Shown: positions 4,943-29,864 of the stretch, piece after piece
Numbering within the stretch: position 1 is the stretch's first letter
How the letters are laid out: each line of letters opens with the position of its first letter
NCBI GenBank assembly: GCA_036005805.1
Contig: DASYQE010000381.1
Location: forward strand, 674-64,673
DNA length: 64,000 bases
DNA from: Candidatus Polarisedimenticolia bacterium
GTDB taxonomy: Bacteria > Acidobacteriota > Polarisedimenticolia > Gp22-AA2
Direction of reading: 5' to 3'
Translations under genes and position numbers: made by a program
The notes under the pieces: generated by a model
The model's input: the letters and a program-made list of their open reading frames with translations, nothing else
The model's database searches: none
Told to the model about the DNA's origin: nothing

Positions 4943-5017
4943 GCCTCTCCTCCTTCGAGCCCTGTTCCGGCGCCGTGTGCGAGGCGCATCTTACCCGCGC
5001 GCCATGCGGGGACGGCT

Positions 5018-5052
5018 AAAAAAAAGCCACCAGGCTCTTGGAGCCTGGTGGC
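5018..5052 (-). terminator. intrinsic terminator downstream of the 39-aa ORF
   Basis: Plus strand carries A8 (5018-5025) followed by GCCACCAGGCTC-ttg-GAGCCTGGTGGC. On the minus strand this is a 12-bp GC-rich hairpin followed by U8. Confidence 0.65.
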
Positions 5053-5087
5053 TGGGTGATGCGAATGCTGAGACGTTGCCGATCGAA

Positions 5088-5207
5088 CTAGCTGGTGATC
5101 GGGCCGCCACTCACACGGCACGAGTCATCCGCCTTGGAGCAGGCCGCGGCACGCGCCTCGATCTTCTCCGTGTGGATGATGGCCGGCTTCTCGTAGCTCT
5201 TCTTCAT
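5088..5207 (-). CDS. unannotated 39-aa peptide, candidate RiPP (ranthipeptide-like) precursor: MKKSYEKPAIIHTEKIEARAAACSKADDSCRVSGGPITS
   Basis: ATG (plus-strand CAT at 5205-5207) with an AGGAGGGAGAG SD 7 nt upstream. Codons are GC3-rich, the stop is TAG (5088-5090), and the terminator lies 36 nt downstream. Not in the track because it is under 60 aa. Confidence 0.6.
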   Translation of the reverse strand: MKKSYEKPAIIHTEKIEARAAACSKADDSCRVSGGPITS

Positions 5208-5237
5208 GGCGAAACTCTCCCTCCTGGAGGATGGTTT

Positions 5238-6455
5238 TTACTTCACCGAAACCGACGCGCTGCGGACCGAAGTCCCGTCGCTCTTGACGGCCTCGACCGT
5301 GATCGAACGCTCGTTCTTCAGTGCGCCGCGGCCCGTCTCGAAGGAGTAATCGTTGCTGCCAATCCCCTTCGCGGAGATGAGGCCAGAGTTGAGCTTCGTG
5401 GAACCGCCGTAAACGTTGAAGCCGACGATCAGCGACTCGTTCTCGGTGCCGAAGGAGACGGAGAGCTTGCCGGCGGCCAGCTCAGCCTTCTTGATGGCAA
5501 CCTTGTCCGACGCCGCGGCGGCGCCGCCGATGCGGAGCCAGCCGGTGAGGCCGCCCGACTCAGCGGGAGCAACCGAGCCATCGCCGATCAGCGAGCTGGC
5601 GCCGACGAAGGCACAGGAGCTGTCGGCCGGACGGTTGACCTGGACGCACTTGCTGCCGCCCGGGCCAGCCGTGACGGCCAGCGGCGAACCCCACGACGAC
5701 CGGCGGAGATCCGGCGTCGTGTTGCAGGGACCGGTGATCGAGTACAGGTTCCCCGGAGCCGCCGTCACCTGCGTGCCCACGGTGCCCGTGCAGGTCCCGA
5801 GAGCCTCGCCGACCGTCCCGGCATCGCAGTCGCTGTGGACCGGCGCGCCCGCCTGCTGCACGCAGACGGTGTTCGCCGTGAGACCGTTGGTGTTGGAGAC
5901 GAGCGACAGACCGTTGCTCTGGCTGCACGCCAGCGGAATGGCGGCCGCGCCGTCGAAGCCCTGCGCCTCCTCGACCATGTACTGGCCGAAGTCATTCGAG
6001 AAGCCGAAGCTGGTGACGATCGAGGAACCGTCGTTCGCGACCACCTGGATGACCACTCGCGCTCCCGTACCCTGCGCCCCAGCGGGGTTCGGGCAGCCGG
6101 TGGCGGACTGCTGCGGTCCGCCCCAGTCGAACAGCACGGTGACATTGCCGTCGCCGGCGGCGCCGGCTTCCGGCTGACAGTCGACGAACTGATCGTTCTG
6201 CACTCCAGTGGCCTCGCAGACGAAATCGAGGGTCCCGTCCGCCTGGACGGTCGTGTTGGTATTCGTCGTCGCTTCCGCGCCGAGCGCGTAGGCGTAGCCG
6301 ACGACCGGCTGGCTGTCGGGGCACCCCGTGAAGAAGCTGCCGAACGCGTGCTGCATTGGCTGCGGGTTCGGACAGGCGGCGCGCAGGGGACTCGGCACCG
6401 CCATGACCAGCAGCGCCACCGCGCCCAGCGTCAGGATCTTTGTGACCTTGTTCAT
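5238..6455 (-). CDS. secreted Cys/Gly/Thr-rich protein, paralogous to the N-terminal half of the TSP3-repeat protein
   Basis: Signal peptide MNKVTKILTLGAVALLVMAVPSPLRAA. Shares CQPEAG..GDG.VT, QF/YM, LYSI(T/V)GPC and SWGSP blocks with ORF 10700..12472. AAGGAGGAGGGAGAG SD upstream. Confidence 0.6.
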   Translation of the reverse strand: MNKVTKILTLGAVALLVMAVPSPLRAACPNPQPMQHAFGSFFTGCPDSQPVVGYAYALGAEATTNTNTTVQADGTLDFVCEATGVQNDQFVDCQPEAGAAGDGNVTVLFDWGGPQQSATGCPNPAGAQGTGARVVIQVVANDGSSIVTSFGFSNDFGQYMVEEAQGFDGAAAIPLACSQSNGLSLVSNTNGLTANTVCVQQAGAPVHSDCDAGTVGEALGTCTGTVGTQVTAAPGNLYSITGPCNTTPDLRRSSWGSPLAVTAGPGGSKCVQVNRPADSSCAFVGASSLIGDGSVAPAESGGLTGWLRIGGAAAASDKVAIKKAELAAGKLSVSFGTENESLIVGFNVYGGSTKLNSGLISAKGIGSNDYSFETGRGALKNERSITVEAVKSDGTSVRSASVSVK

Positions 6456-6503
6456 GGTTGGCTCTCCCTCCTCCTTTTGCTCGTCGTGAGAAATCGCTTG
6501 CGA

Positions 6504-7199
6504 TTAGAAATGGGCCGGAATGAACGACAGCGGCCCGTTCGGCTCGCGGATCTGCACCGCCTCGCCGAGAACCAAGTTCAGCGTGCCGGCGGCAGCCGTT
6601 CCGCAGGTGACCGTCGTCGCCGCGCCGGTGCTGGCGTTGAGACGCTGGATGGTAGCACGCGAGACGCCCGTCGAGGTCAGCCCCGACGACAGGCAGAGGT
6701 CAGCGGCGGTGACGGCGGTCGTGTGGTAGGGCACCGAGAACCACAGGGAGCCGATGGAGCCGGTCCCGGCGTCCGGAACGGTGATCGACAGCGACGGGTT
6801 GTGCGACCCGACGATGATGATCGACCCGCTCTGACCGGTCGGACGGCGGATGCGGACGCCACGTCCCGGGAAGATGGCGCGGCTGGTGGCGGCGGCGGTG
6901 CCGCACGTCACGGTGCTGACGGCGCCGTTGACCGGGTCGATGTCGGTGATGGTGTCACGCGCGACGCCGGAGGTGATGAGACCGGTCTGCGTGCAGAAGG
7001 CGCCGAGGTTCCCGTAAGGGTTGAAGTACGGGATCGAGGTCCAGTTGCTGCCGATCTGGCCCGCGCCCGGCAGCGCCAGCGGCTTGTTCATCTTGAAACC
7101 GGTGTTCGACGCCGTCACCACCCCGCCGGCGACGACCATCGCGGCAGCGACGAGAACCACCGCCAGTCCGAAGTGCGATTTCTTGTTGAGCATTTTCAT
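6504..7199 (-). CDS. secreted protein made of two tandem ~90-aa repeats
   Basis: Signal peptide present. Repeat A (GSNWTSIPY...TVTCGTAAA) and repeat B (GSLWFSVPY...TVTCGTAAA) are clearly alignable. Confidence 0.6.
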   Translation of the reverse strand: MKMLNKKSHFGLAVVLVAAAMVVAGGVVTASNTGFKMNKPLALPGAGQIGSNWTSIPYFNPYGNLGAFCTQTGLITSGVARDTITDIDPVNGAVSTVTCGTAAATSRAIFPGRGVRIRRPTGQSGSIIIVGSHNPSLSITVPDAGTGSIGSLWFSVPYHTTAVTAADLCLSSGLTSTGVSRATIQRLNASTGAATTVTCGTAAAGTLNLVLGEAVQIREPNGPLSFIPAHF

Positions 7200-7275
7200 G
7201 GCCTCCCTGTATCCCCTTGAGTTTTCGACCTACACCCACCCTAGAAGGCCGGCGAGGTTGTCGGCAACCTGCCGG

Positions 7276-7303
7276 TATGTACGCCCAAACTCCACTATGT
7301 CAA
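7276..7303 (-). promoter_or_regulatory. candidate sigma70-like promoter (TTGACA-N16-TACATA) for the 6504..7199 operon
   Basis: Minus strand reads TTGACA tagtggagtttgggcg TACATA, about 70 nt upstream of the start codon. The -10 element is imperfect. Confidence 0.3.
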
Positions 7304-7322
7304 GCACGAAAGAGCGGCGCTG

Positions 7323-7898
7323 CTACTCAACTCTGTAATAGGTGATGGCCGGGGATTCGGTGTCCCGGTCCACCCATTCATGCCCTTTGACGACCTGAGC
7401 GGCACCGGTTCCCAGGAGCCGCGGGTCGGTCGTCTTGAAGACTTTGTAGGTCCGGTTGTGCCCGTTGCTCCAGGCGACCCTGAGGCCGTCCTTCTCCAGG
7501 CGCATGTCCAGTTTCTCGGGCCCCTGGGCCTGCTGGGGCGCCACGTTGCCGTGGCTCAGGACGAAGGGGGCGGCGATCACCACCATGAGCAGCATGGCCG
7601 GGACGGCGGCGCTCCAGCCGTGCACGGGCAAAGGCGGCGCCAGGCGGCGCCACCAGGGAGCACGCACGGCCTCTTCGGCGGCCCGGGTGGAGATCCGCGT
7701 CACGACTCCGGGGGCCAACACGTCCCGCACCTCGAGCAGCGAGCGAACATCCGACAGAACATCTTTCATTTCAGCGAGTTCGGCGGCGCAGTCGGCACAT
7801 CCGGCCAGGTGGGACTCGACCGCCTCACGGCGGGAAAGCCCGAGGTCATCCGAGACGGCCAGCGGCAGGTCCTGTCGGAACCGGGTGCAGTCGCTCAT
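7323..7898 (-). CDS. zinc-finger (ZAS-type) anti-sigma factor, single TM
   Basis: N-terminal HLAGCADCAAEL (H-x3-C-x2-C) motif, a TM helix AVPAMLLMVVIAAPFVL, and a periplasmic C-terminal domain. Confidence 0.6.
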   Translation of the reverse strand: MSDCTRFRQDLPLAVSDDLGLSRREAVESHLAGCADCAAELAEMKDVLSDVRSLLEVRDVLAPGVVTRISTRAAEEAVRAPWWRRLAPPLPVHGWSAAVPAMLLMVVIAAPFVLSHGNVAPQQAQGPEKLDMRLEKDGLRVAWSNGHNRTYKVFKTTDPRLLGTGAAQVVKGHEWVDRDTESPAITYYRVE

Positions 7899-7975
7899 GG
7901 TCCCCTATACCCCCTGGCCGCGGGCGGCGTTCAAAGCGGGCCGGTGTCCCGGCCCGAAAAAAACCTCCCGGGGGC

Positions 7976-10531
7976 CTACTGGCAGCCCCCGGAGCTGGGG
8001 AAACCCGGCTTTCCGGAGGTTGAAAGCGAGTAGTTCCCGGCGACCCCGCCCGCGACCGACCGGATCAGGTAGAACCAGGCCTGCCCCACGGGAGGGGTGA
8101 CCGGGTCGGGGAAGTTGGCGGTGTCGGTGTCGGGGATGTCGTTGGCGATGCAGGTCACCGGACCCAGGTTCACCGTCGTCGGGGTCTGGGTGACGCTCCC
8201 CACGTTCCCGCGGATGACGTCATAGACGGCGCCCGGGACGATCCCCCAGCGCAGGTAGGTCGACTGGTGCCCGATGACGATGGCGCTCGCCAGCGGGTCG
8301 CCGAGAATCGACTGGTTGAGCAGGATGGTCACCGACTCGGTGTAATTGTCGGCCACGGCCAGGTCGGGCTTGCCGTCGGCGTTGAAGTCGCCGGCGGCCA
8401 CCGCCAGGGGCAGGTCGCGGGTCCCGAAGTCCCCCGCCTTGGTGAAGTTGCCGAACCCGTCCCCCAGCAGGAAGGAGACGTCGTTGCCGTTGGCGTTGAC
8501 CACGGCCGCGTCGAGCTTGCCGTCATTATTGAGGTCCGCCAGCGACACCGCATTCGGCGATTCCCCCGCCACGCTGTCGATCGACGGGAACGAGAAGACC
8601 CCGCCGCCGTCTCCCAGAAGAGCGCTGATGGTGCCCGAGGCGGAGTTGGCGACCACGAGATCCTGGTAGCCGTCGTTGTTCAGGTCGCCGCGCGCCATCT
8701 CGCGCGGACCGTTGCCGGTCGGGAAGGACGAGGGGATGTCGCCGAACCCGCCGAACCCGTCGGAGAAGCCGATGTCCACCCAGTTGTTGGTCTGCGAGGA
8801 GAAGGCGATGTCGGCCAGGCTGTCGAAGTTGTACTGGCCGACCGCCACCCCCTGCGGGTCGGCGTCCACGAGCGTGCAGAGGGTCGGCCCGAAGGCGCTG
8901 GCCCCCACGCCGCCCGTGCCGCGCTTGGTGCACACGTGGTAGGAGATCTCGCAGACGAAGGCCACGTCGGTCTTGCCATCGCCGTTGATGTCGCCCGCCG
9001 AGATCGCCACCGGGCTGCTGCAGGGTGAGGTCGAGATGCCGTTGCTGGCGTTGAGGGTCCCCGACCCGTTGTTCTGCAGAACCGACATCGTGTTGGTGCC
9101 GGTCACGACGACGAGATCGGGCCAGGTGTCGTTGTTGTCGTCGAGGGCGACCAGCGCCTCGGGGGCGCTCACGTTCCCGGTGCTGATGTTCACCGGCGCG
9201 AGGAAGGTGCCCCCGCCGTTGCCCCGGGCGGTGATCACCCGGTCGTTCGCCTCGTCCGTCGTGGCGATGTCGGGCTTGCCGTCCTTGTTGAAGTCGGCGA
9301 CCACGACCGACGTCGGGAACGAGCCGGAGCCGAGCGCGACCTTGTCGGCAATGATGAAGGCGCCGTTGGCGGTGGTCTCGAGGATCGACAGCGAGTTGCC
9401 GGTCAGGTTGCCGGTGACCACATCGAGGTTGCCGTCCTTGTTGAGGTCGGCGCTGGTCACGACCGTCGGCACCGGGCCGGTGGAGACCACGGTGGGCGCC
9501 GACCAGCTCGTGCCGCTGCCGTTGCCGGTCAAAACCGCCAGCTCGCCCGTGCCGGACACGTAGGACTGCGCGACCAGGAGGTCGGAGAAGCCGTCCTTGT
9601 TGATGTCGTCCACCCGGATCGCCCGCGGTCCGAACCCGCTCGAGAGGCTTAACGGAGTGTTGAAGCCGCCGCTGCCGTTGGCGATGTAGACCTTCACCGA
9701 GTCGGCGCCCCGCGCCGCCACGATGAGGTCGGGCTTGGTGTCGCCGTTCAGGTCGGCGGCGGTGGCGGACGCGGGCAGGCTGCCCGCGGCGAGAGTCAAG
9801 GTCAGGTTCAAGGCGAACCCTCCCGTTCCGTTCCCGCGCCAGATCTGCACGTTGTTCGAATCGGTGTTGACCACGGCCAGGTCGAGGATGTTGTCGGCGT
9901 TGAAGTCGGCCGTCAGGATGGCGTTCGGCGTCTGCCCGACGGTGAGGGTCGTCAGGTTGCCGAAGGTCCCCGTGCCGGTGCCGCGCAGGATCGAGACGGT
10001 GTCGTTGTTCGTGTTGGCGGTGGCGACGTCGAGGTGCGTGTCGTTGTTCCAGTCTCCGACCGCCAGGCCGAAAGGACCGGCGCCGACGGGTGAGCCGATC
10101 TTCGCGCCGAAGACGCCGTGGCCGTTGCCGAGATTGACCGTGACGTTCTGGGTCAGGAAGTTCGCGGCCACCACGTCGGGGAAGCCGTCGTGGTTGACGT
10201 CCACGAAGACAAGGGCCGTCGGCTTGGATCCTGCCACGAGGGTGCTGGTGCGCCGGAAGGTCCCGTCCCCGAATCCCTTCAACAGGCTGACGTAGTCCGA
10301 AAGCTCGTCCGCGCTCATCAAGTCCGTGACCCCGTCGCCGTCGAAATCGACCGCCAGGATCGACACGGGATGGTCTCCGACGTAGTAGTCGCGCCGGGAC
10401 TTCATGTCGTACTGGGCGAAGGCGAGCGGAGAAACGAGGACGGACAGGAGCACCGCGGCGATCGCGGTGACGCTCCCCTGCAAACGGCGGCGCGGAAACT
10501 GGCGGCGCGTTCCGGACTTCTCAGAGCACAT
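7976..10531 (-). CDS. secreted FG-GAP/VCBS-repeat (integrin-alpha-like beta-propeller) protein
   Basis: About 14 repeats of the D-x-N-x-D-G-x-x-D type (DFDGDGVTD, DVNHDGFPD, DLNGDTKPD, DINKDGFSD...). Start re-set to the ATG at 10529-10531 (MCSEKSG...) ahead of signal peptide VTAIAAVLLSVLVSPLAFA. Confidence 0.75.
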   Translation of the reverse strand: MCSEKSGTRRQFPRRRLQGSVTAIAAVLLSVLVSPLAFAQYDMKSRRDYYVGDHPVSILAVDFDGDGVTDLMSADELSDYVSLLKGFGDGTFRRTSTLVAGSKPTALVFVDVNHDGFPDVVAANFLTQNVTVNLGNGHGVFGAKIGSPVGAGPFGLAVGDWNNDTHLDVATANTNNDTVSILRGTGTGTFGNLTTLTVGQTPNAILTADFNADNILDLAVVNTDSNNVQIWRGNGTGGFALNLTLTLAAGSLPASATAADLNGDTKPDLIVAARGADSVKVYIANGSGGFNTPLSLSSGFGPRAIRVDDINKDGFSDLLVAQSYVSGTGELAVLTGNGSGTSWSAPTVVSTGPVPTVVTSADLNKDGNLDVVTGNLTGNSLSILETTANGAFIIADKVALGSGSFPTSVVVADFNKDGKPDIATTDEANDRVITARGNGGGTFLAPVNISTGNVSAPEALVALDDNNDTWPDLVVVTGTNTMSVLQNNGSGTLNASNGISTSPCSSPVAISAGDINGDGKTDVAFVCEISYHVCTKRGTGGVGASAFGPTLCTLVDADPQGVAVGQYNFDSLADIAFSSQTNNWVDIGFSDGFGGFGDIPSSFPTGNGPREMARGDLNNDGYQDLVVANSASGTISALLGDGGGVFSFPSIDSVAGESPNAVSLADLNNDGKLDAAVVNANGNDVSFLLGDGFGNFTKAGDFGTRDLPLAVAAGDFNADGKPDLAVADNYTESVTILLNQSILGDPLASAIVIGHQSTYLRWGIVPGAVYDVIRGNVGSVTQTPTTVNLGPVTCIANDIPDTDTANFPDPVTPPVGQAWFYLIRSVAGGVAGNYSLSTSGKPGFPSSGGCQ

Positions 10532-10699
10532 GCGGCGACGAGACGAGCGAACGAAAGTGCCGAGCCAGACGGAACGGAACTTCGACGACCACTGCAACAG
10601 CCACATCGACGGCCACTGCGTTTCAGAACCGAACCCCGGTTCCACCCGGCCGCGAGGCCGAATGGAACCGGGGTCGGAATCCGAAATCAACGACTCAGA

Positions 10700-12472
10700 C
10701 TAGCGGCTCACCGGGTACGACTCGACCGTCGACTGACGGACGAGCTCGATGAAGAAGCTCTGGCCGCTCTTGTGCTTCGGAACGATGAAGGAGTAGGACC
10801 CCGACCGACCGTCGCCGCAGGCCGTGCAGGCGATGACGGCGGCGTTCAGCTGGATCCGCTGGCCCTTCACGTAGCGCACGACGTTGAAGCCCACCACGTC
10901 CACCTCGGTCGTCGTCTGCCAGGTCACGAGACCCGAGCCCTTGCCGGCCGCGTTGTGGAAGTCGATGTGCGCATTCACGACCTGCTGCACGCAGGCGCCC
11001 GGGTCCTGGTCCGGGTTCGGGATGTTCGGGCAGACGTCGCAGACGTCCCCGAAGCCATCACCGTCCGCATCACCCTGGCCGGCGTTCGGAATGTTCGCGC
11101 AGTTGTCGCAGGCATTGCCGAGGAGGTCCCCGTCGCTGTCGGCCTGGTTGGTGTTCGCCGCGGCCGGGCAGTTGTCGCAGAGGTTGCCGACGCCGTCGCC
11201 GTCGCCATCCGCCTGGTTCGAGTTGGCGAGGGCGGGGCAGTTGTCGCAGGCGTCACCGAAGCCGTCGAGGTCGCTGTCCATGCCGCTGTCCGCAACATTC
11301 GGGCAGGGGTCGCAGGCATCGCCGAAGGCGTCGCCGTCGGAGTTGGCCTGGTTGGCGTTCGCGAGAATCGGGCAGTTGTCGCAGGCGTCGCCGCGACCGT
11401 CGCTGTCCGTGTCTTCCTGGCCGCCGTTGGCCGTGTTCGGGCAGTTGTCGCAGGCATCGCCGCGCGTGTCGCCGTCGGCGTTGGCCTGGTTGGCGTTCGA
11501 CACCGTCGGGCAGTTGTCCACCGGGTCCGCAATGCCGTCACCGTCCGTGTCCACCGTGCTGACGCTGGCGTGGGAGGAGACGTGACCGCTGGCCGCGCCA
11601 CCGACCTGAAGCCCGAGGGCCAGGTAGGTGCAGTTGGTGCCGGTCGTGTCGAACGGCACCGTCGCGCTGCCGGACAGGCCGCTGAAGCTGCCGATCGGCG
11701 AGCCCCACGAACCGGTGGCGCTGGTGGTCGGCTGGCTGGCGCACGGGCCGACGATGGAGTAGAGGTTGTAGCCCTGGATCAGGCCGGTGCGCGAACCGCC
11801 GCCACTGGGGAACGCCGGGCAGGTGCCGGCGGCGTTGAGGGCGCAGTCGTCGTACGCGACCGCCGCGTCCCAGGAGAGGGCCACGTTGGCCGTGCCGTTG
11901 CCGTTGTTGGTGATCGTGTTGACGTGCGGCGACGGGATGTTGCCCGCCCCGAGCGCGGAGCCGATGCCGTTGACGACATCGAGACCCGGCTGGGACAGGT
12001 CATACATGAACTGCTGCAGCTGGCTCGACCAACCCACCGCCTCGACGACGTAGCGGCCGGCGTGGGCCGACGTGCCCTCGCCCGAGCTCGACGTCACGAT
12101 GGTGACGAGGACGCTGGAGCCGTCCGGATCCGTGTTGGCCACCGGGCAGCCGGTCACGCCGACGTTGCCGAAGTTGCCGTTGATGGTCACCAGGCCGTCG
12201 TTGCCGCCGCCGGCCTCGGGCTGACAGAACTCGATGCCCGCGGTCGTCTGCGCGGTGCAGACGAACGCGCTCGACCCGTTGTTGATGGATGAGTCCCCGA
12301 GCTTGGACGCCCGGCCGGTCGCCGACGCCTCGGGCAGCCCGGTCAGGTAACCACCCAGCTGATGCCCAAAGGGGGTCGAATCCGGACACGACTGCGCCAT
12401 GACTGCCGGCGCCGCCGCGAAGGCGACCATCACCGCCGCCACGGCCACCATGGTTTTAAGGAACGTCTTCAT
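10700..12472 (-). CDS. secreted protein: Cys-rich N-domain + ~8 thrombospondin type-3 (Ca-binding) repeats + small C-terminal domain
   Basis: Signal peptide MKTFLKTMVAVAAVMVAFAAAPAVMAQ (start at 12470-12472). TSP3 repeats of the form D-x-D-x-D-G-x-x-D-x-x-D-N-C-P-x-x-x-N-x-x-Q. Confidence 0.75.
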   Translation of the reverse strand: MKTFLKTMVAVAAVMVAFAAAPAVMAQSCPDSTPFGHQLGGYLTGLPEASATGRASKLGDSSINNGSSAFVCTAQTTAGIEFCQPEAGGGNDGLVTINGNFGNVGVTGCPVANTDPDGSSVLVTIVTSSSGEGTSAHAGRYVVEAVGWSSQLQQFMYDLSQPGLDVVNGIGSALGAGNIPSPHVNTITNNGNGTANVALSWDAAVAYDDCALNAAGTCPAFPSGGGSRTGLIQGYNLYSIVGPCASQPTTSATGSWGSPIGSFSGLSGSATVPFDTTGTNCTYLALGLQVGGAASGHVSSHASVSTVDTDGDGIADPVDNCPTVSNANQANADGDTRGDACDNCPNTANGGQEDTDSDGRGDACDNCPILANANQANSDGDAFGDACDPCPNVADSGMDSDLDGFGDACDNCPALANSNQADGDGDGVGNLCDNCPAAANTNQADSDGDLLGNACDNCANIPNAGQGDADGDGFGDVCDVCPNIPNPDQDPGACVQQVVNAHIDFHNAAGKGSGLVTWQTTTEVDVVGFNVVRYVKGQRIQLNAAVIACTACGDGRSGSYSFIVPKHKSGQSFFIELVRQSTVESYPVSR

Positions 12473-12625
12473 CAGATTCCCCCCTCCTGAAGAGTGGTTG
12501 GTTCCCTCTGGATCTCTTGACTGCTGGACTCTCGGCCTGCTGACCCTGTGTTCGGCGATGTCGTGACCCTTGCGTTTCCGCCTATGGGGCCAGGACATAG
12601 ATCACAGCCCTGCGCGAATGACCTC

Positions 12626-12653
12626 TAGATACCCCGATTTAGGACATTGTCAA
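12626..12653 (-). promoter_or_regulatory. candidate promoter (TTGACA-N16-TATCTA) in the AT-richer gap upstream of the TSP3-repeat gene
   Basis: Minus strand reads TTGACA atgtcctaaatcgggg TATCTA. The local GC drop suggests a promoter; the -10 element is weak. Confidence 0.25.
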
Positions 12654-12708
12654 GAAAAAACACTCGGCTGAACTCTGGCGGATTCTATCGCGGTGATGAC
12701 GATTTCGT

Positions 12709-13347: not shown

Positions 13348-13358
13348 GTCGTCGCGCC

Positions 13359-16300
13359 TCAGAAGGGGCTGAGGTTGCCGCGGTTGTCCACCGCCAGCAC
13401 GCTGATGAACTTCGTTCCGGCGGGCAAAGACACCAGGTCCACCGAGGTGGCGGTGACGTTGTCCATGAAGAGGGTGGACGGTCCGAGCCCGGCGCGCGAC
13501 ACCGGCGCCGAGGTGACGTGCACCTGGTAATGATCGATGAGCGTGGGCAGTCCCTGCACGTCGGTCGTCACCGGCAGCCAGGAGAGGTGCACGGCCGAAG
13601 CCGGCATGGTCACGTCGAGGCTGCCGACGCCGTTCGGCAGGTCACGGCCGGCGCCCGAGACCAGGCCGTTGGAGTCCACGGCGGTCACCACGTAATAGGC
13701 GTTTCCCGCCAGGGTGTAGCCGCCGGTGTGCGTCCAGGTCGCCGGCGTGCCGCTGTTGATCACCGCGAAGGGGGCGGCGGGGTTGATGGTGAAGTTCGGG
13801 GTGGTGCCGCGGTAGACCCGGTACCCCACCACGTAGGTCGGACGGCCGTAGATGTCCACCGCGGGCCGGGTCCAGGTGAGGACGAGATCCGAGCCGGATC
13901 GATTGACCGTCAAATCGTCGATGGCCCGCGGCGGCGCGATCCCCTCGAACAGGTGCGGGACCTCGGACACCTCGGCGGTGCGGGCGCTCTCGATGTCGGA
14001 CGTGTTGGTGGCCGTGAGGCTCACGTAATAGCGCGTCCCGGTCTGCAGGCCGAAGAGCGAAAGCCCGGTGGCCGTCGCGGCCGCCGTGACGGTCGCGGTC
14101 GGCGCCCCGGCCGTGATGCCGTAGCGTACCGTATACCTCTTGATGTCGGTCTCGGGATTCTTGTTCCAGGAGACATCCAGCCGTCCCCCGGTGCCCGCGT
14201 CGCGCACCACCAGCCCGGTCGGAACACTCGGCGGGTTCGGGTTGATCGGCCGCGCCGTGACGCAGTCGGGTCCAGCGTCGCAGTCGCTGTTGAAGTTGGA
14301 GTTCGCGCCCTCGAACCCGTCGGCGTCCACCGACACCGCGAAGTAGTAATAGCGGCTGGCGTTGATGACCGTGGAGTCGATGCAGGAGTTCGCCCCGGCC
14401 GGCGTGCAGGCGATCGCCGTGGAGGCGGCGCCCGGCGTGCCGGTGGCGCGGTACAGGCGGGTGGAGGCGGCCGGCGTCCCCGGGGGCGTCCACGACAGGG
14501 TCACCTGGCCGTTCCCCGCCTGCGCCTGCAGCGCGGTCGGCGGCGCGGGAGCCGGCGTGGCGATGCGGCTCGCGGGGTCGCCGAGGAACGTGTACCCCTG
14601 CAAGTCCACGATCGAGCCCTGCTGCCAGAGGGCGGTCCGCATCGGCAGCGCCGCCTCGCCGAGCACCGTCTCGCGATCGGGTCCGAACAGCGACAGGAAC
14701 GTGTCGTCCGAGACCACCGAGCCGACGAAGGCGTTCGACAGGCCGCTGGGCGCGAGCGCGGCGATGGCGCCGCCGGCCGGGTTGTTCACCATCCCCTCCC
14801 CCAGCGAGCCGGTCCCGACCAGGTAGTGGAAGCCGCCGGAGAGGCAGTTGACGTTCACCATGAACGGCAGGCGCAGGCCGTTGGTCAGCGCCACGGCGTC
14901 GCTGGTCGTGAAGAAGGCGTCGAGCCCCCACTGCTCGAAGTTGCCGTGGCCGACGAAGGTGAGCACCGCCGCGCCCGACTGCAGCTCGGAGAGGAGCGTG
15001 GTCTTGAAGCCGGCGGCGTCGGCCGCGTTCCACGGCGGGTTGTCGAAGTAGAGCTGCGGCGACGGGTGACTGTACGGCGCCTGGCTGAAGAAGTCGGTGG
15101 TCAGGTCGTTGTTCACCGCCTCGAAGTCGTCCGACTCGCCGGTGAACTTCCCGTCGCCGGCGGTCAGGATGGCGCGCCCTTTCCACGTCCCGGACGGTGG
15201 CGTGGTCTCGAACTGGCGGATCTTGTCGAACACCGCGGCCGAGGCGGCGACGCTGCGCGTCGAGATGCGTCCCAGGTGCAGGTCGGGGATCTGGTCGGAC
15301 CCCGAGACGGAGGCCAGCCAGTTGTCGCTGCTGTAGTAGCCGATGATGCTCGCCGCCTGGAAGAGGATCGGCGTCGGCACCTGGTCGACCCAGTCGGCGC
15401 GCTGCATGACGTTCTTGAAGTCGGGGGTGGCGTCCCCGACCAGCAGCGCGAACGACGGCGGCGCCTCCAGCCCGGACGCCCCGCGCCAGTTCGCGAAGGC
15501 GTAGGCGAGGAAGCTCCGCACGGCGTTGGCGTCGCGGCGCCCGAAGGAGAACTCGTCGTACACCTGGTCGATGAAGACGACGCGGGAGTGGAGCCCCTGG
15601 GTCGCGAGCCTATGGCCCAGGAGCAGGTCGAGCGATCCTCCGGGGGCCGGATCGATCGTCTGCGTCGTGCCGATGACGATGAAGTCGGCCTGCTGTCCCG
15701 CGATCTTCAGCACCGGGTCCGCCGCCTGGGTCATCGCGTCCGGCAGGAGCGCGCCTGAGGGCCCGACGACGGCGAAGGTCCGGGTCGCGGGGGCCGAAGC
15801 GTCGAGCGCCGCCTCGAAGGTCCAGGCGGACGTCGGCGCGCCCGACGGCGTGGCGCCGGTCAGCGCGACGGCATCGGCTTCGCCGTTGCCCGCCACCGTC
15901 CTGCCGACCTCGAGGATGCGCGGCGCGGTGGCGCCGAGCCCGCCGACCTGGTAGCGGCCGTTCTGGTTCGGCACCGTGAAGAGGAGCACGTCGCCCGTCG
16001 CCGTGAAGGTGCGCCGGTACTTCACCTTGAACCAGTCGGGGTACTGGCGGTCCACGCTGATTCCCGCGTCGGTCACCGCCAGGGCGTGCACCGTGAGCGG
16101 GTTGCTCACCGACGCGCGCGGCACCGAGAAGGTGTGCTCGTTCATGGTCTCGTCGTCCCAGGTGTACTCCGAGGCGTTGACGGTGTCGGAGTTGAGCCAG
16201 ACGCGCGTCCGGTGGTCGGGGGCCGCCGCCAGGGACGAGCCGCCGCGCAGCCGCGCCGTCACCGTGACCGGCACGGCGGCCGGGGCCAGCCCGGGCAGCG

Positions 16301-17633
16301 CCAGCGACAGGTCGCGCTGCGCCTGGGCGCTTCCGGCGAGGAGCGACGGGATGGAGAAGTAGGGATCCTCCGCCCCGAGCGGAATGAAGATGTTGTTCTC
16401 CTCCCAGGTGGCGGTGTCCTCGAAATCGGCGGCCTGCGCGAAGCCGGAAACCGGGGCGCCGGAAGCGGACGGAATGCGCTTGTGGCCGCCCTGGTTGGTC
16501 CCGGTCGTCAGCCAGTACACCTGGGTGTCGGTGAAGTCGTTCGCCTCGTAGACCGACGGGTTGGCCAGACCCATGTCGAAGTTGAGCAGCGTCGGCGGCT
16601 CGGTTTTGGGCAGACCGAAGAACTCCAGGGTGTCGCCGGAGCCGAAGACCCCGTCCGCCTCTCCCGATCCGCCCGCGGCGTTCAGGATGGAGATCGGCAC
16701 CTCGACGCCGTCCACCTCGAGACCCCACGTGCGCGGGTCGGTCGCGAGCAGCGCGGCGGCGTTCGCATTGAGATAGGCGAGATCCAGGCGGTACAGCCCG
16801 CGCTTCGAAACCGCGATCTTGAAGCGCGGACCCGCCGGGGCGGCCGCCGTCGTCACGGCTTCGGTCGAGGCTGCAACCGTGCCGACCGGGGTCGAACCCA
16901 CCGCCTCGCGGTCCTCTTTCCGCGGTCCGCGCTGGCGCCGGAAGAAGCGTCCCTGCTCATAGTTGATGAAGGCGGATCGGTACCCGGCCTCGAAGTGCGG
17001 GTCGGCCGGCGGCGCGGCGCTCAGCCCCTGACCGGCCGGCAGGTCGAAGGTGACCACCGCTTCGATGTCGCCGTACAGGCGGCCCTCGCGCCGGACCGGG
17101 TCGTACAGCAGCGGCGTCCAGATCACCTCCACGAACGCCTGGTCGCGCAGCGCTCCGACCCGGCCGAGGTGCAGGGGCGCGTCCGGCTGGAAGGCGTCGG
17201 CGCCGTACACCGGCGCGGAGCGCGCGAAGTCCTGGACGACCTGGCCCCGCGCGCGACGATCGCCGCCCGGCGGCGTCTGCCCGTCGCCCGGGTCGAACCC
17301 TTCGCGGTCGGACAGGCGCGGCGTCGGCACCGGTGGCACGTCGAGATCGGTCAGGGTGCGCGAGTCGGCACGCAGGATCGCCAGGGACGGGACGGCCCCC
17401 TCGGGGATCGCCACCAGGACGATGCGCACCGGCAGGGCCGGCTCGCCCGGCCGGCTGGTGGTGCCGAAGCCGTCGAGCGCCGGCACCAAGCCGCCCTCGA
17501 CGGCGCGGAAGCGCAGCTCGGGCGTGCCGAGGCTCAACGGAACCGACTGGCTTCCGGGCGCACCGTGCCCGGGGACGACGAGGCAGAGCAGGAGTCCGAC
17601 GAAAACGAGCGGACGGAGAATCGGGGAGTTCAT
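13359..17633 (-). CDS. giant secreted peptidase C25 (gingipain-like, clan CD) with multiple C-terminal Fn3-like domains
   Basis: Signal peptide present. His-Gly / Cys dyad context FVGHGNFEQWG ... (36 aa) ... VNVNCLSGGFH matches the gingipain/caspase-fold catalytic arrangement. Fn3-like repeats follow (VTLSWTPP..., LDVSWNKN..., LVLTWTRP...). Confidence 0.65.
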   Translation of the reverse strand: MNSPILRPLVFVGLLLCLVVPGHGAPGSQSVPLSLGTPELRFRAVEGGLVPALDGFGTTSRPGEPALPVRIVLVAIPEGAVPSLAILRADSRTLTDLDVPPVPTPRLSDREGFDPGDGQTPPGGDRRARGQVVQDFARSAPVYGADAFQPDAPLHLGRVGALRDQAFVEVIWTPLLYDPVRREGRLYGDIEAVVTFDLPAGQGLSAAPPADPHFEAGYRSAFINYEQGRFFRRQRGPRKEDREAVGSTPVGTVAASTEAVTTAAAPAGPRFKIAVSKRGLYRLDLAYLNANAAALLATDPRTWGLEVDGVEVPISILNAAGGSGEADGVFGSGDTLEFFGLPKTEPPTLLNFDMGLANPSVYEANDFTDTQVYWLTTGTNQGGHKRIPSASGAPVSGFAQAADFEDTATWEENNIFIPLGAEDPYFSIPSLLAGSAQAQRDLSLALPGLAPAAVPVTVTARLRGGSSLAAAPDHRTRVWLNSDTVNASEYTWDDETMNEHTFSVPRASVSNPLTVHALAVTDAGISVDRQYPDWFKVKYRRTFTATGDVLLFTVPNQNGRYQVGGLGATAPRILEVGRTVAGNGEADAVALTGATPSGAPTSAWTFEAALDASAPATRTFAVVGPSGALLPDAMTQAADPVLKIAGQQADFIVIGTTQTIDPAPGGSLDLLLGHRLATQGLHSRVVFIDQVYDEFSFGRRDANAVRSFLAYAFANWRGASGLEAPPSFALLVGDATPDFKNVMQRADWVDQVPTPILFQAASIIGYYSSDNWLASVSGSDQIPDLHLGRISTRSVAASAAVFDKIRQFETTPPSGTWKGRAILTAGDGKFTGESDDFEAVNNDLTTDFFSQAPYSHPSPQLYFDNPPWNAADAAGFKTTLLSELQSGAAVLTFVGHGNFEQWGLDAFFTTSDAVALTNGLRLPFMVNVNCLSGGFHYLVGTGSLGEGMVNNPAGGAIAALAPSGLSNAFVGSVVSDDTFLSLFGPDRETVLGEAALPMRTALWQQGSIVDLQGYTFLGDPASRIATPAPAPPTALQAQAGNGQVTLSWTPPGTPAASTRLYRATGTPGAASTAIACTPAGANSCIDSTVINASRYYYFAVSVDADGFEGANSNFNSDCDAGPDCVTARPINPNPPSVPTGLVVRDAGTGGRLDVSWNKNPETDIKRYTVRYGITAGAPTATVTAAATATGLSLFGLQTGTRYYVSLTATNTSDIESARTAEVSEVPHLFEGIAPPRAIDDLTVNRSGSDLVLTWTRPAVDIYGRPTYVVGYRVYRGTTPNFTINPAAPFAVINSGTPATWTHTGGYTLAGNAYYVVTAVDSNGLVSGAGRDLPNGVGSLDVTMPASAVHLSWLPVTTDVQGLPTLIDHYQVHVTSAPVSRAGLGPSTLFMDNVTATSVDLVSLPAGTKFISVLAVDNRGNLSPF

Positions 17634-17704
17634 GGGGACCCGGACTTCAACCGGAGATCAGCACCTTCTTTCCCTTGCGCACGACACGAGCGGCTCTGCG
17701 CCGC

Positions 17705-18802
17705 TCACATTCCGCACTTGGTGAGGACCCCCCCGGTCTCCTCCGCGGAATGTCCGGTCTTCTCTTTCCAGGTGGCGTAGGCCTTGGCGCGGAACTCGGC
17801 GTTCTTGGCGATCTGCGGGTAGATCGCCTTCGGGTCGCCGAGCTGCACGTCGGCGACGCCCATGCAGAAGCCGCACTGGTCGCCGTTCTTCGCCACCTTC
17901 AGGGTCTGCTGCGCCACTTCGACCGCCTCGCGCCGCACCTGGATCAACACCGGCGAGGTGCGCCACATGTCGCGCAGGTTCGCGAGCTCGCGGATGTTCC
18001 CCGCCTTGCGCCGCAGCTGCACGCACGGATAGATGTTGCCGTACGGGTCGATGGCGAGGCCCGAGCGGCCGGTGCCGCAGACCGCCTCCCCCGGCGCATC
18101 GACGCGCGGCAGCGGGATCTCCTCCTTGCGGGCGGTCCGGTAGGCGTCGTCGGACCAGAATTTCTCCAGGAAGTCGTCGCTCGACATCAGCGAAACGGGA
18201 TCCTTGTCGCCGTCGTCGCGCGGCGTGATGACCGTGTCGAACTGGATGCGCGCGCCGAGCTCGCTCGCGAGGCGCTCCATGTCGAGCACCTCCCACTGGT
18301 TGTCCTTGGTCACCGGGCACTTGAGATTGACCTTGATGCCCTCGGCGCGAAGGTAGCCGACGCCCGCGAGCAGCTTCTTCAGCGAGCCGGGGACGCAGGT
18401 GAGCTTGTCGTGGGTCTCCGGCTTCGCCCCGTGGATGCTGATCTCCATCTCCAGCGGGTTGGCGATCTGTTTGATCTTCTTCGCCATCGGCTCGTCGATG
18501 AGGAAGCCGTTGGTGTAGATGCGCAGCGCGAACCCGAGCCGGCGCGCCTCGGCGGCGATCTCGAAGAAGTCCTTGCGGACGAGCGGCTCCCCTCCCGTGA
18601 GCGTCAGGTAGAGGACGTTGAAGTCGGCGAGCTTGCGCAGCGCGTCGAACACCTCGGCGGTGTTCATCTCCTTCTGGCCGGTCGGGCAGTTGTAGCAGAA
18701 GGAGCAGGCGTGGTTGCAGACGAAGGTCAGCTCGAACAGCGCCGACATCGGCACGGCGTTGTTCCAGTTCTTGATGGTCAGTTTTTCGAGCGCGTTCGGC
18801 AT
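17705..18802 (-). CDS. radical SAM / SPASM-domain enzyme (peptide-modifying maturase class)
   Basis: CNHACSFC (CxxxCxxC) cluster with a downstream GGEPL motif. C-terminal SPASM cysteines: CGTGRSGLAIDPYGNIYPC ... CGFCMG. Confidence 0.85.
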   Translation of the reverse strand: MPNALEKLTIKNWNNAVPMSALFELTFVCNHACSFCYNCPTGQKEMNTAEVFDALRKLADFNVLYLTLTGGEPLVRKDFFEIAAEARRLGFALRIYTNGFLIDEPMAKKIKQIANPLEMEISIHGAKPETHDKLTCVPGSLKKLLAGVGYLRAEGIKVNLKCPVTKDNQWEVLDMERLASELGARIQFDTVITPRDDGDKDPVSLMSSDDFLEKFWSDDAYRTARKEEIPLPRVDAPGEAVCGTGRSGLAIDPYGNIYPCVQLRRKAGNIRELANLRDMWRTSPVLIQVRREAVEVAQQTLKVAKNGDQCGFCMGVADVQLGDPKAIYPQIAKNAEFRAKAYATWKEKTGHSAEETGGVLTKCGM

Positions 18803-18803
18803 G

Positions 18804-19070
18804 TCAGCTCACCATTCCTTGCGTCTTCAGATCGGTGACGAAGGCCTGCAGATCCCCGAGCGCCTTCTCGCGCGTGATGTCGTACTCCGCCAGGATGCCG
18901 TCGAGAATCTCCGCCAGGGTGCGCCGCCCGTCGATCCGCTCCCAGATCGCGCTGCCGATCTCGTTCAGCACGCTCACCTGGGCGCGCGAAGGCAGGACGA
19001 TGGTCGCCTGCCCGTCGTAGGTGCGGTGGGCGGCGTCGGGGCTCTTGGTGAGAACGGTGGTCAGGTCCAT
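18804..19070 (-). CDS. PqqD-family peptide chaperone (stand-alone RiPP recognition element)
   Basis: 88 aa. Family pattern VLNEIGSAIWERIDGRRTLAEILDGILAEYDI...ALGDLQAFVTDLKTQGMV. Reading frames are tightly coupled to the flanking genes. Confidence 0.75.
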   Translation of the reverse strand: MDLTTVLTKSPDAAHRTYDGQATIVLPSRAQVSVLNEIGSAIWERIDGRRTLAEILDGILAEYDITREKALGDLQAFVTDLKTQGMVS

Positions 19071-19073
19071 GCG

Positions 19074-19991
19074 TCAGCGCTCCTCGATCACATCCCAGAA
19101 GGCGTCGTCCTTGCGGAAGTGCAACCTCCACAGCGGGGTCGTCGCGACCAGCCGCGCGGCGTTCTCGACCGCCGGTCGCGGATCCACGTCGCCGTCGAGC
19201 ACGAACGGCAGCGAGGCCACCACTTCTGCCAGAGCCGCCGCCCCGGCCACTCGTTCACGCCGGACATCGGACGACTGCACCAGCCGGTGCAGCCCGGCGA
19301 TCGGAAAGGCCTCGTTGCTGTCCGGCACGTGGTGGTGCGCCATCCCGAACGGGATGCCCGCCGCCTGAAAACCTCGAGGTGCGGGGACCAGCAAGGTCAG
19401 GTCGTCGCTCAGCACCAGGTCGCGCTGCGAGAACCGGGTCACGGTGGTCTTGCCGCTGCCGGATGGGCCGAAGAAGACGTAGGCCCGGCCGCCGCGCACC
19501 ACCGCCGCGCCGTGCAGCAGCATCCCGCCGCGTGCCTGGATGAACCCGGCCGTCATCGCCCGCAGGAAGTTCTCCGAGCCGCGCTCGAACCGGGGTCCTT
19601 CCTCCTCGACCAGCGCCAGCTCGGCGGTGCGTCGATCGGTGGCGAAGGACCCGGCGAACTCGTACGACCACCAGCGCCGGGCGTCGGCGTCACGCCGGGT
19701 CGGCATCCGATAGACCTCCGTGCCGGCGTCCTGGAGCTGCAGGAACGACTCCCGGCCGGCGCGCGTGAGGCGCACGGAAAGGTCGGCCGGCCCGGTGGCC
19801 TTTTCCTCGAGGAACGGCCGGTACTGGCTGAGGAGGCGATCCCGCTGCCTGGACGAGAGCCCCTCGAGGGCGAAGCGCAGGGGCCCGACGCGCAGGGCGA
19901 GCGTCCCCTGCCCGAACGCGGGGCGGTTTTCGGCGAACCAGGCCGCATCCGGGTTGAAATCAGTCCCGGGGGGACGGTCCTGTCCGCTCAT
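19074..19991 (-). CDS. HprK-related kinase (HPr kinase C-terminal-domain P-loop family); start uncertain (track uses TTG at 20096)
   Basis: Walker A FFGPSGSGKTT, then LSDDLTLL, in an HprK C-terminal-like fold. ATG at 19989-19991 is preferred because the candidate promoter at 20067-20096 would lie inside the longer ORF. Confidence 0.65.
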   Translation of the reverse strand: MSGQDRPPGTDFNPDAAWFAENRPAFGQGTLALRVGPLRFALEGLSSRQRDRLLSQYRPFLEEKATGPADLSVRLTRAGRESFLQLQDAGTEVYRMPTRRDADARRWWSYEFAGSFATDRRTAELALVEEEGPRFERGSENFLRAMTAGFIQARGGMLLHGAAVVRGGRAYVFFGPSGSGKTTVTRFSQRDLVLSDDLTLLVPAPRGFQAAGIPFGMAHHHVPDSNEAFPIAGLHRLVQSSDVRRERVAGAAALAEVVASLPFVLDGDVDPRPAVENAARLVATTPLWRLHFRKDDAFWDVIEER

Positions 19992-20066
19992 CCTGTCGGC
20001 GACGGCGCCTTGGGACACGTGTGTGAGCAAGGTTCGGGTAGCCCTCGGCTGCTTTGAAACGGCCGA

Positions 20067-20096
20067 AATATACCGTGTTTCGGGGGGTTCGTCCAA
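20067..20096 (-). promoter_or_regulatory. candidate sigma70 promoter TTGGAC-N17-TATATT for the kinase-PqqD-rSAM operon
   Basis: Minus strand reads TTGGAC gaacccccgaaacacgg TATATT, in the 60-bp gap after the sulfatase-like gene stop. Confidence 0.3.
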
Positions 20097-20153
20097 ACGA
20101 AATTTGGTTACAAGTTGGGGATTACGCGACGGTTAGGCCATGTCCAGCAAGGA

Positions 20154-27793: not shown

Positions 27794-27820
27794 CTACTCC
27801 GTCCAGCGGCCCCGGCTTGA

Positions 27821-29845: not shown

Positions 29846-29864
29846 CGCGTCTCCTCTCCCGGGT

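Follow-up and report, generated by a model that had tools for sequence, protein, structure and literature searches.

Homologs of HPr kinase (HprK) phosphorylate precursor Ser residues: in paeninodin-type lasso peptides the one at the C-terminus, and in linear polyphosphorylated peptides (LPPs) Ser3 of the core (PMC8498205, PMC13381572). In ribosomally made peptides with post-translational modifications (RiPPs) of this kind, discrete lasso-type RiPP recognition elements (RREs) recognise a [Y/W]xxPx[L/V/I/A/F/Y] leader motif, and the RRE-dependent leader peptidase of LPPs, LppS, is a SipW-type homolog of signal peptidase I (PMC13381572). Here, a 64,000-nucleotide (64-kb) stretch of DNA from Candidatus Polarisedimenticolia bacterium (contig DASYQE010000381.1; the whole stretch is called the window below) was analyzed for a block of eleven minus-strand genes that runs from an HprK-related kinase, a PqqD-type RRE and a radical S-adenosylmethionine (rSAM)/SPASM enzyme, through a family C25 peptidase and an extracytoplasmic function (ECF) sigma factor, to a 39-aa peptide. 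With moderate confidence, we read this block as a conserved acidobacterial locus for a ribosomally made, modified peptide, tied both physically and in evolution to a PorU-like, secreted C25 peptidase and to an ECF sigma/anti-sigma pair. Generic RiPP features are present (a short precursor gene with a conserved leader, and a PqqD-fold RRE); since the locus departs from every specific family in one or more defining features, where assessable, it was assigned to the RiPPs without a named family.

The conserved core and its precursor peptide

The G+C content of ~70% across the window gives rise to long spurious open reading frames (ORFs) on both strands, and genuine genes were picked out by Pfam and NCBIfam domain searches. 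A first-pass annotation, made from the sequence alone, had listed the eleven genes in the order given below, with gaps of about 72 and 12 bp on the two sides of the C25 gene. ORF and domain searches bore out the order, and the gaps were measured at 71 nt (rSAM to C25) and 11 nt (C25 to ECF). From the kinase end to the peptide end, the genes are:

19074-20096, minus strand, HprK-related kinase (ORF with TTG start, probable ATG start at 19991), from domain matches
18804-19070, minus strand, stand-alone PqqD-type RRE (Pfam PqqD 3.6e-17)
17705-18802, minus strand, rSAM/SPASM enzyme (Radical_SAM 9.4e-22, SPASM 2.5e-5)
13359-17633, minus strand, secreted PorU-like C25 peptidase, 1424 aa (Peptidase_C25 5.2e-59, Propeptide_C25, fn3)
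12709-13347, minus strand, ECF sigma factor (Sigma70_r2, Sigma70_r4_2; TIGR02937 above cut-off)
10700-12598, minus strand, secreted TSP3-repeat protein (start placed at 12472; TSP_3 4.9e-28, six stretches)
7976-10690, minus strand, secreted FG-GAP/VCBS beta-propeller protein (start placed at 10531; FG-GAP_3 5.7e-89, FG-GAP 1.3e-48)
7323-7898, minus strand, zf-HC2 (zinc-binding anti-sigma, ZAS-type) membrane anti-sigma factor (zf-HC2 8.5e-7)
6504-7199, minus strand, secreted 231-aa two-repeat protein, family unassigned
5238-6455, minus strand, secreted 405-aa Cys-rich protein, paralog of the TSP3 protein
5088-5207, minus strand, 39-aa putative precursor peptide MKKSYEKPAIIHTEKIEARAAACSKADDSCRVSGGPITS, with homologs between rSAM and C25 in a second clade

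Homologs of the rSAM enzyme (487 at E <= 1e-20) were found chiefly in soil and sediment metagenomes and in metagenome-assembled genomes (MAGs) of Acidobacteriota/Candidatus Polarisedimenticolia; a look-up of the exact window protein returned a sole match, on a 5.9-kb metagenome contig. Loci were collected with an rSAM alignment from one genome per species (57 loci) and with a C25 alignment of 7 sequences from metagenomes (46 loci), an 11-sequence C25 alignment being too divergent for the scan. Window proteins were placed on the loci (~100 compared over both scans) by tblastn, and co-occurrence was then counted. The C25 gene lay 5.5 kb or less from the rSAM gene in 31/31 rSAM-centred loci having enough downstream sequence, and the kinase and PqqD genes lay upstream of rSAM in 29 of 30. 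From the C25 side, an rSAM gene was found upstream in all 28 loci having upstream sequence, and the ECF sigma gene directly followed C25 in 33/34. The conserved core is the HprK-like kinase, PqqD chaperone, rSAM/SPASM enzyme, precursor peptide, PorU-like C25 peptidase and ECF sigma factor. The arrangement is far beyond chance: independent assemblies, with proteins 50-80% identical, show the complete gene order again.

Three architectures were distinguished. Loci of the window's clade (at least 65% rSAM identity) read, in order, sulfatase-fold/TPR, kinase, PqqD, rSAM, C25, ECF, TSP3, FG-GAP, anti-sigma, a protein of ~240 aa, a protein of ~400 aa, peptide and terminator (complete in L059, L061, L064, L067, L082, L083, L084 and L088), and rSAM and C25 are ~70 nt apart with no conserved promoter between them. 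Clade-2 loci (~50-55% rSAM identity) begin with UvrBC and a phosphodiesterase-like membrane protein and continue with a small peptidase, kinase, PqqD, rSAM, 1-3 peptide genes, C25 and ECF, with convergent sulfatase-fold/TPR genes beyond the ECF gene. In distant loci (rSAM identity ~35%; Thermoanaerobaculia, Holophagales and one Chloroflexi MAG), the cassette and C25 are still adjacent though rearranged: L030 and L033 have their C25 and peptide genes in convergent orientation to the maturase genes, and the Chloroflexi MAG has two C25 genes. The core linkage survives rearrangement and reaches these distant lineages. Phylogenetic co-occurrence, which the first-pass annotation had proposed as a check, was found in both directions and after rearrangement too, and its idea of one system held for the maturase, C25, ECF sigma and peptide genes. 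It did not extend to the TSP3, FG-GAP and 405-aa proteins, which are confined to the window's clade, are absent from clade 2 and are therefore classed as accessory.

One soil MAG catalogue labels L002, L013, L019, L003 and L025, which are nearly identical loci or clear orthologues, as Patescibacteria, Verrucomicrobiia, Binatia or Gemmatimonadales. The rSAM protein of L013 is 98% identical to that of the window, and these labels look like those of mis-binned or mislabelled Acidobacteriota contigs.

The 39-aa gene is preceded by a AGGAGGGAG ribosome-binding site and is single copy in the window. The strongest argument that this gene, distant from the rSAM gene here, encodes the maturase substrate comes from clade 2, in which its homologs (59-78% identity; 1-3 genes in tandem) sit between rSAM and C25. 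Since the 39-aa peptide was below a usable query length, a 40-aa homolog led the profile search. This search returned 1,275 proteins at E <= 1, all unannotated and none with a Pfam domain; no Pfam or NCBIfam model matched the family, even at E <= 10. Conservation was counted in 120 representatives, 103 of them 38 aa long, and in these 103 Y5, P8, E14, A18, R19, A20, C23, C31, P35 and S38 are invariant. The peptides close with a conserved GGP-I/V/L-T/Q-S motif and have a C-terminal Ser in 119/120 representatives; in the most distant (L032, L041), Thr is the last residue. The two Cys enclose a loop of 7 residues in 118/119 representatives, and the second residue past the first Cys is K (115) or R (4 of 119). 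The leader segment Y5-x-x-P8-x-I10 fits the lasso-type RRE motif. In a sub-clade of four loci (L026, L027, L097 and L099), which have a gap of 245-580 nt between rSAM and C25, no canonical peptide of the family was recognised, and a divergent precursor may be used there.

All 17 kinase orthologues searched match ScmC (best 5.7e-13), 14 match HprK_rel_A and 12 HprK_rel_B, in each case below the family cut-off. They share the motif LHGAAVVRGGRAYVFFGPSGSGKTTV..LSDD (LHG..V..G.A..FFGPSG.GKTT...LSDD), with H195, S212, G215, K216, T218 and D231 invariant. A profile search of PDB with the kinase matched phosphoenolpyruvate carboxykinase in the P-loop region only, and no HPr kinase. The PqqD fold is present in the second protein (above the Pfam gathering score); the NCBIfam ScmD, PqqD, GeoRSP and lasso PqqD models match it below their cut-offs. 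The rSAM enzyme has seven invariant Cys (C29, C33, C36, C39, C242, C260 and C313), laid out as CxxxCxxC plus C39, C242-x12-G-x4-C260 and (C310)xxC313, a truncated SPASM domain. Its closest solved relative is the thioether synthase SkfB (2.4e-19), followed by PqqE, CteB and anaerobic sulfatase-maturating enzyme (anSME). The mycofactocin maturase (4.3e-33) is among its NCBIfam matches, all of which stay below the cut-off of the model. In clade 2 and in distant relatives, a SipW-type peptidase is encoded first in the cassette (peptidase-kinase-RRE). The small peptidase of clade 2 passed the archaeal-type signal peptidase I model (63.5 bits vs a cut-off of 51.85), and its SipW match is weak. No SipW-type peptidase was found in the window or in any window-clade locus.

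The C25 protein comprises a signal peptide, a gingipain-type prodomain, a PorU-like N-terminal and catalytic region, and FN3 domains. Its profile matched PorU (6za2) at E = 2.3e-34 over residues 268-1026 (~760 residues) and the RgpB prodomain at 4e-9, and the catalytic residues H896 and C930 are invariant in 11 divergent orthologues. The score against the NCBIfam PorU model (NF033707) was 184.9 bits and did not reach the cut-off of 420. No type IX secretion system (T9SS) family (PorV, PorK-N or cargo C-terminal domains) was found among the window proteins scanned. Residue E838 aligns with RgpB Asp163, which we take to be the S1 Arg-binding residue. Six of the lineages examined keep it, five with an EARA peptide plus L027 (no peptide found), and another residue stands there in five lineages that have EAMA, EATA or VVAA in the peptide; this tracking of peptide Arg19 by E838 is suggestive only. 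To our knowledge, this is the first C25 (PorU/gingipain-type) protease to be an obligatory partner of a peptide-modification cassette. The PorU-like nature of C25, the pairing of a C-terminal Ser with a kinase, and the SipW-type peptidase of related lineages had been missed by the first-pass annotation.

The C25 genes of clade 2 (L017-L025, L093, L101 and L108) contain a conserved, long inverted repeat, GCCTTAACCGGnAC ... GTnCCGGTTAAGGC, in their first ~40 codons (e.g., L021 11640-11700), which is absent from the window's C25 gene and could be an RNA element. In L024, a truncated duplicate of the C25 5'-end (~7150-7500) lies between peptide genes 2 and 3. It has the same inverted repeat, with different yet complementary arms (GCCTTAGTCAGGGTTGCC / GGCAACCCTGGCTAAGGC), and is followed by the third, more divergent peptide copy.

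Transcription units, sigma factor and accessory genes

Promoters and terminators were located by a promoter scan and by intergenic alignments across the window's clade. The elements found, in the direction of transcription, are:

20067-20096, minus strand, sigma-70-type promoter TTGGAC-N18-TATATT of the kinase-PqqD-rSAM-C25-ECF unit, both hexamers conserved (12 loci)
12686-12711, minus strand, ECF-type promoter motif TGAACG-N16-GATA (consensus GGTA) over the ECF stop codon, in most window-clade loci
12626-12653, minus strand, sigma-70-type promoter TTGACA-N16-TATCTA upstream of TSP3, in 21/21 aligned loci
10633-10674, minus strand, hairpin past the TSP3 stop, conserved in a 15-locus alignment, terminator-like in relatives, U-tract degenerate here
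7957-7993, minus strand, second terminator-like hairpin (7993-7967) with a U7 run at the FG-GAP stop codon, in this strain and close relatives only
7908-7933, minus strand, TGAACG-N16-GGTA, an ECF-type promoter motif that stops 9 nt short of the anti-sigma ATG, in 10/10 loci
7276-7303, minus strand, sigma-70-type promoter TTGACA-N16-TACATA of the 231-aa/405-aa/peptide unit, in 8/9 aligned loci
5017-5053, minus strand, strong intrinsic terminator (hairpin 5053-5025; 13-bp stem and U8 run) after the peptide gene, dG -26.5 kcal/mol, z -6.2

The block is thus divided by five or more conserved promoter-like elements and by two hairpins inside it, which argues for a supra-operon of at least four units and not for the single transcription unit that had been proposed. 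The peptide gene is predicted to be co-transcribed with the 231-aa and 405-aa genes from their own sigma-70-type promoter. The terminal terminator, kept with compensatory changes in all window-clade relatives, is strong and lies at the end of the block as first described; it is not the only terminator-like element, given the hairpins at 10674-10633 and 7993-7967, the latter weak (z -0.4) and not conserved. Short junctions were likewise confirmed on both sides of the C25 gene and gave way to gaps of 236 nt (ECF-TSP3) and 168 nt (TSP3-FG-GAP) once gene starts were revised. The TSP3, FG-GAP and kinase starts had been called too far upstream, and conserved promoters and ribosome-binding sites give 12472, 10531 and ~19991. 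The TTGGAC-N18-TATATT promoter falls inside the annotated TTG-started kinase ORF. The TSP3 promoter is followed by a leader of ~150 nt and a strong GGAGGGGGG ribosome-binding site, the conservation of which, with that of MKTFLK, sets the TSP3 start; FG-GAP orthologues are 832-850 aa long, which fits an FG-GAP start at M54 (10531).

The ECF sigma factor has SigW as its best NCBIfam match, and we take the AAC of the -35 and the GTA of the -10 element to resemble SigW-type ECF promoters. TGAACG-N16-GGTA has a single exact match in the window, and six matches were found with one mismatch or fewer, vs 1.2 expected. At the anti-sigma gene, a conserved -10-like GGTATA ends ~7 nt ahead of the ATG with no Shine-Dalgarno sequence; since the promoter motif ends only 9 nt before the ATG, the mRNA appears leaderless. 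The encoded protein has an N-terminal zf-HC2 domain, one transmembrane segment (read from sequence) and an extracytoplasmic domain of ~75 aa ending YYRVE. The sigma and anti-sigma genes are not adjacent (4.8 kb apart here, 6-8 kb in clade 2), and a shared promoter motif is the only link between them. In clade 2 (L101 and L093), the same ECF-type motif, 6-8 kb past the ECF gene, precedes an anti-sigma-like gene and then a homolog of the 231-aa protein; the homolog of the anti-sigma C-terminal domain adjoins the 231-aa homolog there. The motif shared by both clades links sigma factor, anti-sigma and 231-aa protein, in agreement with the earlier grouping of the latter two with the sigma factor.

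The 231-aa protein, which is anti-sigma-linked in both clades, consists of two repeats of ~95 aa, each with a conserved Cys pair. The TSP3 protein has a Cys-rich N-terminal domain, TSP3 repeats (calcium-binding type) and a C-terminal domain of ~85 aa. The 405-aa protein, for which no Pfam or NCBIfam match was found, had been taken for a paralog of the 231-aa protein; the two are unrelated (E = 2.5), and it is instead a TSP3-protein paralog minus the TSP3 repeats (32% identity, E = 6e-19 in the N-terminal domain; E = 9e-4 in the C-terminal domain). The TSP3, FG-GAP and 405-aa proteins are lineage-specific additions that probably belong to the regulon of the sigma factor. A T9SS-type C-terminal sorting domain was considered as a link to C25, and was rejected: the TSP3 and 405-aa proteins share a C-terminal domain, yet both are absent from clade 2, which retains C25.

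A secreted sulfatase-fold/TPR protein is encoded next to the kinase at 20154-22145, minus strand (Pfam Sulfatase 2.2e-37, Phosphodiest). Its homologs lie upstream of the cassette in the window's clade and convergently downstream in clade 2. These proteins (window 20154-22145; L101 16860-20476) read T-A-P-S-N/H where sulfatases have C/S-x-P-x-R. Thr in the nucleophile position and Asn/His for Arg make a phosphoryl-transfer enzyme more likely than a sulfatase, and not an anSME substrate; predicted phosphatase/phosphotransferase chemistry beside a peptide that a kinase may modify could be relevant.

Between uvrC and the sulfatase-fold gene, an alpha/beta hydrolase (22142-23095, minus strand) matches a quorum-quenching lactonase family and exosortase-associated hydrolases, in both cases weakly. 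Downstream of the block, a conserved neighbour (1685-4942, minus strand; also in L059 and L061) encodes a polytopic membrane protein of 1085 aa that combines TPR repeats with a spermine-synthase-like domain; in relatives, an RNase III gene comes next. An island of lower G+C (27800-34300; 61-64% vs ~70% elsewhere) holds three large minus-strand ORFs (674, 692 and 313 aa) without Pfam match and a methyltransferase, and may be horizontally acquired. An Rfam scan of 4800-20300 gave no match.

Proposed pathway and alternatives

We propose that the PqqD protein binds the peptide leader through Y5-x-x-P8-x-I10 and that the rSAM/SPASM enzyme introduces a cross-link into the core, with the two invariant Cys at the ends of the 7-residue loop as the most likely sites and a thioether as in SkfB or CteB as the best guess. 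The HprK-like kinase would then phosphorylate the invariant C-terminal Ser by analogy with its homologs in paeninodin-type lasso peptides; given the invariant C-terminal Ser/Thr and this precedent, phosphorylation is the most economical prediction. In related lineages, a SipW-type peptidase probably removes the leader, as LppS does in LPPs, and its gene is absent from the window. The C25 peptidase, with its catalytic His/Cys and signal peptide, would act outside the cytoplasm on the exported peptide, for which cleavage after invariant Arg19 (EAR|A) appears likeliest. The ECF sigma factor would drive the anti-sigma gene and, in the window's lineage, the TSP3 and FG-GAP genes through TGAACG-N16-GGTA.

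Several points weigh against this pathway. Gene identities, conserved residues, co-occurrence and promoter motifs are observed, and from them we infer all of the chemistry (Cys cross-link and C-terminal Ser phosphorylation) as well as export, C25 cleavage and sigma control. Single-sequence structure prediction of the kinase was unusable (predicted local distance difference test score 38.8). The co-variation of E838 and Arg19 reflects about two independent lineages or events only, and PorU is also acidic (Asp) at this position, so that E838 is no proof of Arg specificity. The locus lacks a transporter gene in all its versions, and the pathway gives no account of how a signal-less peptide would meet a secreted protease. 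Conservation spans the entire peptide, whereas antibiotic RiPPs have variable cores. A Deltaproteobacteria locus, L035, lacks C25 but contains the kinase and rSAM genes and a weak PqqD-like match, and in L015 a sulfatase-like gene immediately follows rSAM. Most loci belong to one phylum and occupy the same chromosomal site beside uvrBC, so part of the synteny could be inheritance and not function.

Whole-length conservation and the lack of an exporter keep alive a reading that we regard as improbable, in which the modified peptide, instead of being a substrate to be matured, serves the C25/ECF sigma pathway as its dedicated inhibitor, regulator or signal. A cross-linked nine-residue Cys-to-Cys loop would offer Lys25 as P1 to a Lys/Arg-directed clan-CD protease, and C25 activity on the outer domain of the anti-sigma factor would then control the sigma factor. 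The loop, C-[A/S/T]-K-x5-C, is fixed in length (118/119) with K/R in the third position, Cys counted (119/119), and shares its nine-residue format with Bowman-Birk inhibitors, C-T-P1-S-x-P-P-x-C (PMC7760496). That format is, however, known for serine proteases and not for clan CD, the likeness is in spacing only, and the peptide loop is without the Pro-Pro element. Conservation over the whole peptide would suit a ligand with one fixed partner, and the C25 and ECF genes are always paired, 11 nt apart. The small conserved outer domain of the anti-sigma factor, and the ECF-type promoter ahead of its gene in both clades, would fit as well, but the anti-sigma as a C25 substrate is purely conjectural. 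The SipW-type peptidase would already explain leader removal in related lineages, whereas the window's lineage lacks it and needs another leader peptidase, for which C25 is the obvious candidate.

Slightly less probable again is that the locus consists of two unrelated modules, a cytoplasmic peptide-modification cassette of kinase, PqqD, rSAM and peptide and an envelope module of C25, ECF sigma, anti-sigma and secreted proteins, that are neighbours by descent and do not interact. Nearly all loci come from related Acidobacteriota beside uvrBC, the envelope genes have their own promoters, no exporter is present, and L035 retains the cassette without C25. On the other hand, clade-2 peptide genes lie between rSAM and C25, the C25 and peptide genes of L030 and L033 form a unit of their own convergent to the maturase genes, and the maturase was present with 28/28 members of the C25 subfamily. 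The association persists at rSAM identities as low as ~35%, spans classes and includes a Chloroflexi MAG with two C25 genes, and in the window's clade rSAM and C25 share a short gap without a conserved promoter.

It is very improbable that the rSAM enzyme makes a peptide-derived cofactor from the conserved C-terminus, as in mycofactocin or pyrroloquinoline quinone (PQQ), or matures the sulfatase-fold neighbours like anSME: the mycofactocin maturase and anSME are among its NCBIfam and PDB matches, respectively, GGP-I/V/L-T/Q-S recalls the fixed C-terminus of MftA, and sulfatase-fold genes flank the locus in both clades, but cofactor-family models are all far below their cut-offs, no MftD-, MftE- or MftF-type genes were found, the PqqD chaperone and YxxPxI leader point to a small-peptide substrate, distant loci keep C25 without sulfatase-fold genes, and the Cys/Ser-x-Pro-x-Arg target of anSME is replaced by Thr and Asn/His, on which ground the anSME assignment was rejected.

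The reading of a modified peptide coupled to C25 and the sigma/anti-sigma pair can be carried further, to a proposal that we put forward as a speculation of low probability. The peptide would belong to an undescribed RiPP class, rSAM-cross-linked and C-terminal-Ser-phosphorylated, whose mature form binds C25 specifically, as its substrate, activator or inhibitor, and C25 would control an ECF sigma/anti-sigma switch for secreted adhesin-like proteins. If true, an entire class of soil Acidobacteriota would share a conserved, peptide-based circuit for signalling at the cell surface.

Comparison with described systems

Literature on rSAM, PqqD, HPr kinase and C25 in combination, on SynChlorMet and on C25/gingipain in RiPPs was searched, and no description of the system was found. 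The locus defines a large precursor family (>1,200 database matches) and its maturase set, outside Pfam and NCBIfam, in a poorly studied soil phylum. It also offers a concrete candidate substrate for PorU-like enzymes outside Bacteroidota, and a candidate promoter motif and regulon for an ECF sigma factor.

The C25 peptidase resembles PorU (6za2), RgpB and Kgp in its family, its conserved His/Cys dyad, the PorU domain layout and the gingipain-type prodomain. It differs from PorU in that FN3 domains replace the PorU C-terminal region, in the NF033707 score below cut-off, in the lack of T9SS genes in the window and in being encoded inside a peptide-modification locus. The sigma factor (Sigma70 regions 2 and 4) and the zf-HC2 anti-sigma with its transmembrane segment resemble ECF/ZAS pairs, from which they differ in the separation of their genes.

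Among maturases, the rSAM enzyme shares an auxiliary-cluster domain, a Cys-containing precursor and an RRE with the sactipeptide/ranthipeptide enzymes (SkfB, CteB and AlbA), cross-link chemistry being predicted only. Here the RRE is separate, the SPASM domain is truncated (C242, C260, (C310), C313 plus C39), and there is no C39-peptidase/ABC exporter. Mycofactocin and PQQ systems differ by score (114.9 vs 265 bits for MftC; 81 vs 381 bits for PqqE) and by accessory genes that are missing here. The SynChlorMet (SCM) cassette (ScmC, ScmD, ScmE and ScmF; TIGR04248-04251) has components of the same types, namely a protein related to HprK, a PqqD homolog and an rSAM/SPASM enzyme like PqqE, and ScmC, ScmD and ScmE rank first or nearly so among the NCBIfam matches. 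The cut-offs were not reached (27.3 vs 125 bits for ScmC, 43.9 vs 100 for ScmD, 100.9 vs 400 for ScmE), and the present locus has one rSAM enzyme and not two, an identified precursor, C25 and an ECF sigma factor.

The LPP and paeninodin-type peptides of Bacillota share a discrete PqqD-type RRE, the [Y/W]xxPx[LVI] leader and an HprK-like kinase acting on a precursor Ser; for paeninodin the likeness lies in the pairing of such a kinase with a C-terminal Ser on the precursor, and for LPPs it extends to the SipW-type peptidase of clade-2 relatives, which carry peptidase, kinase and RRE in that order. Neither the macrolactam synthetase (C protein) nor the B2 transglutaminase-like leader peptidase of paeninodin was found in the block or flanks, the block has no NTP-transferase or MsbA-like exporter as in LPPs, and the SipW-type peptidase is absent from the window. 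Conversely, the acidobacterial locus adds an rSAM/SPASM enzyme, has a short precursor that is conserved throughout, and makes a PorU-like C25 peptidase and an ECF sigma factor obligatory. It thereby unites the HprK-kinase/RRE/SipW-peptidase module of phosphorylated lasso peptides and LPPs with an rSAM/SPASM enzyme of predicted cross-linking type.

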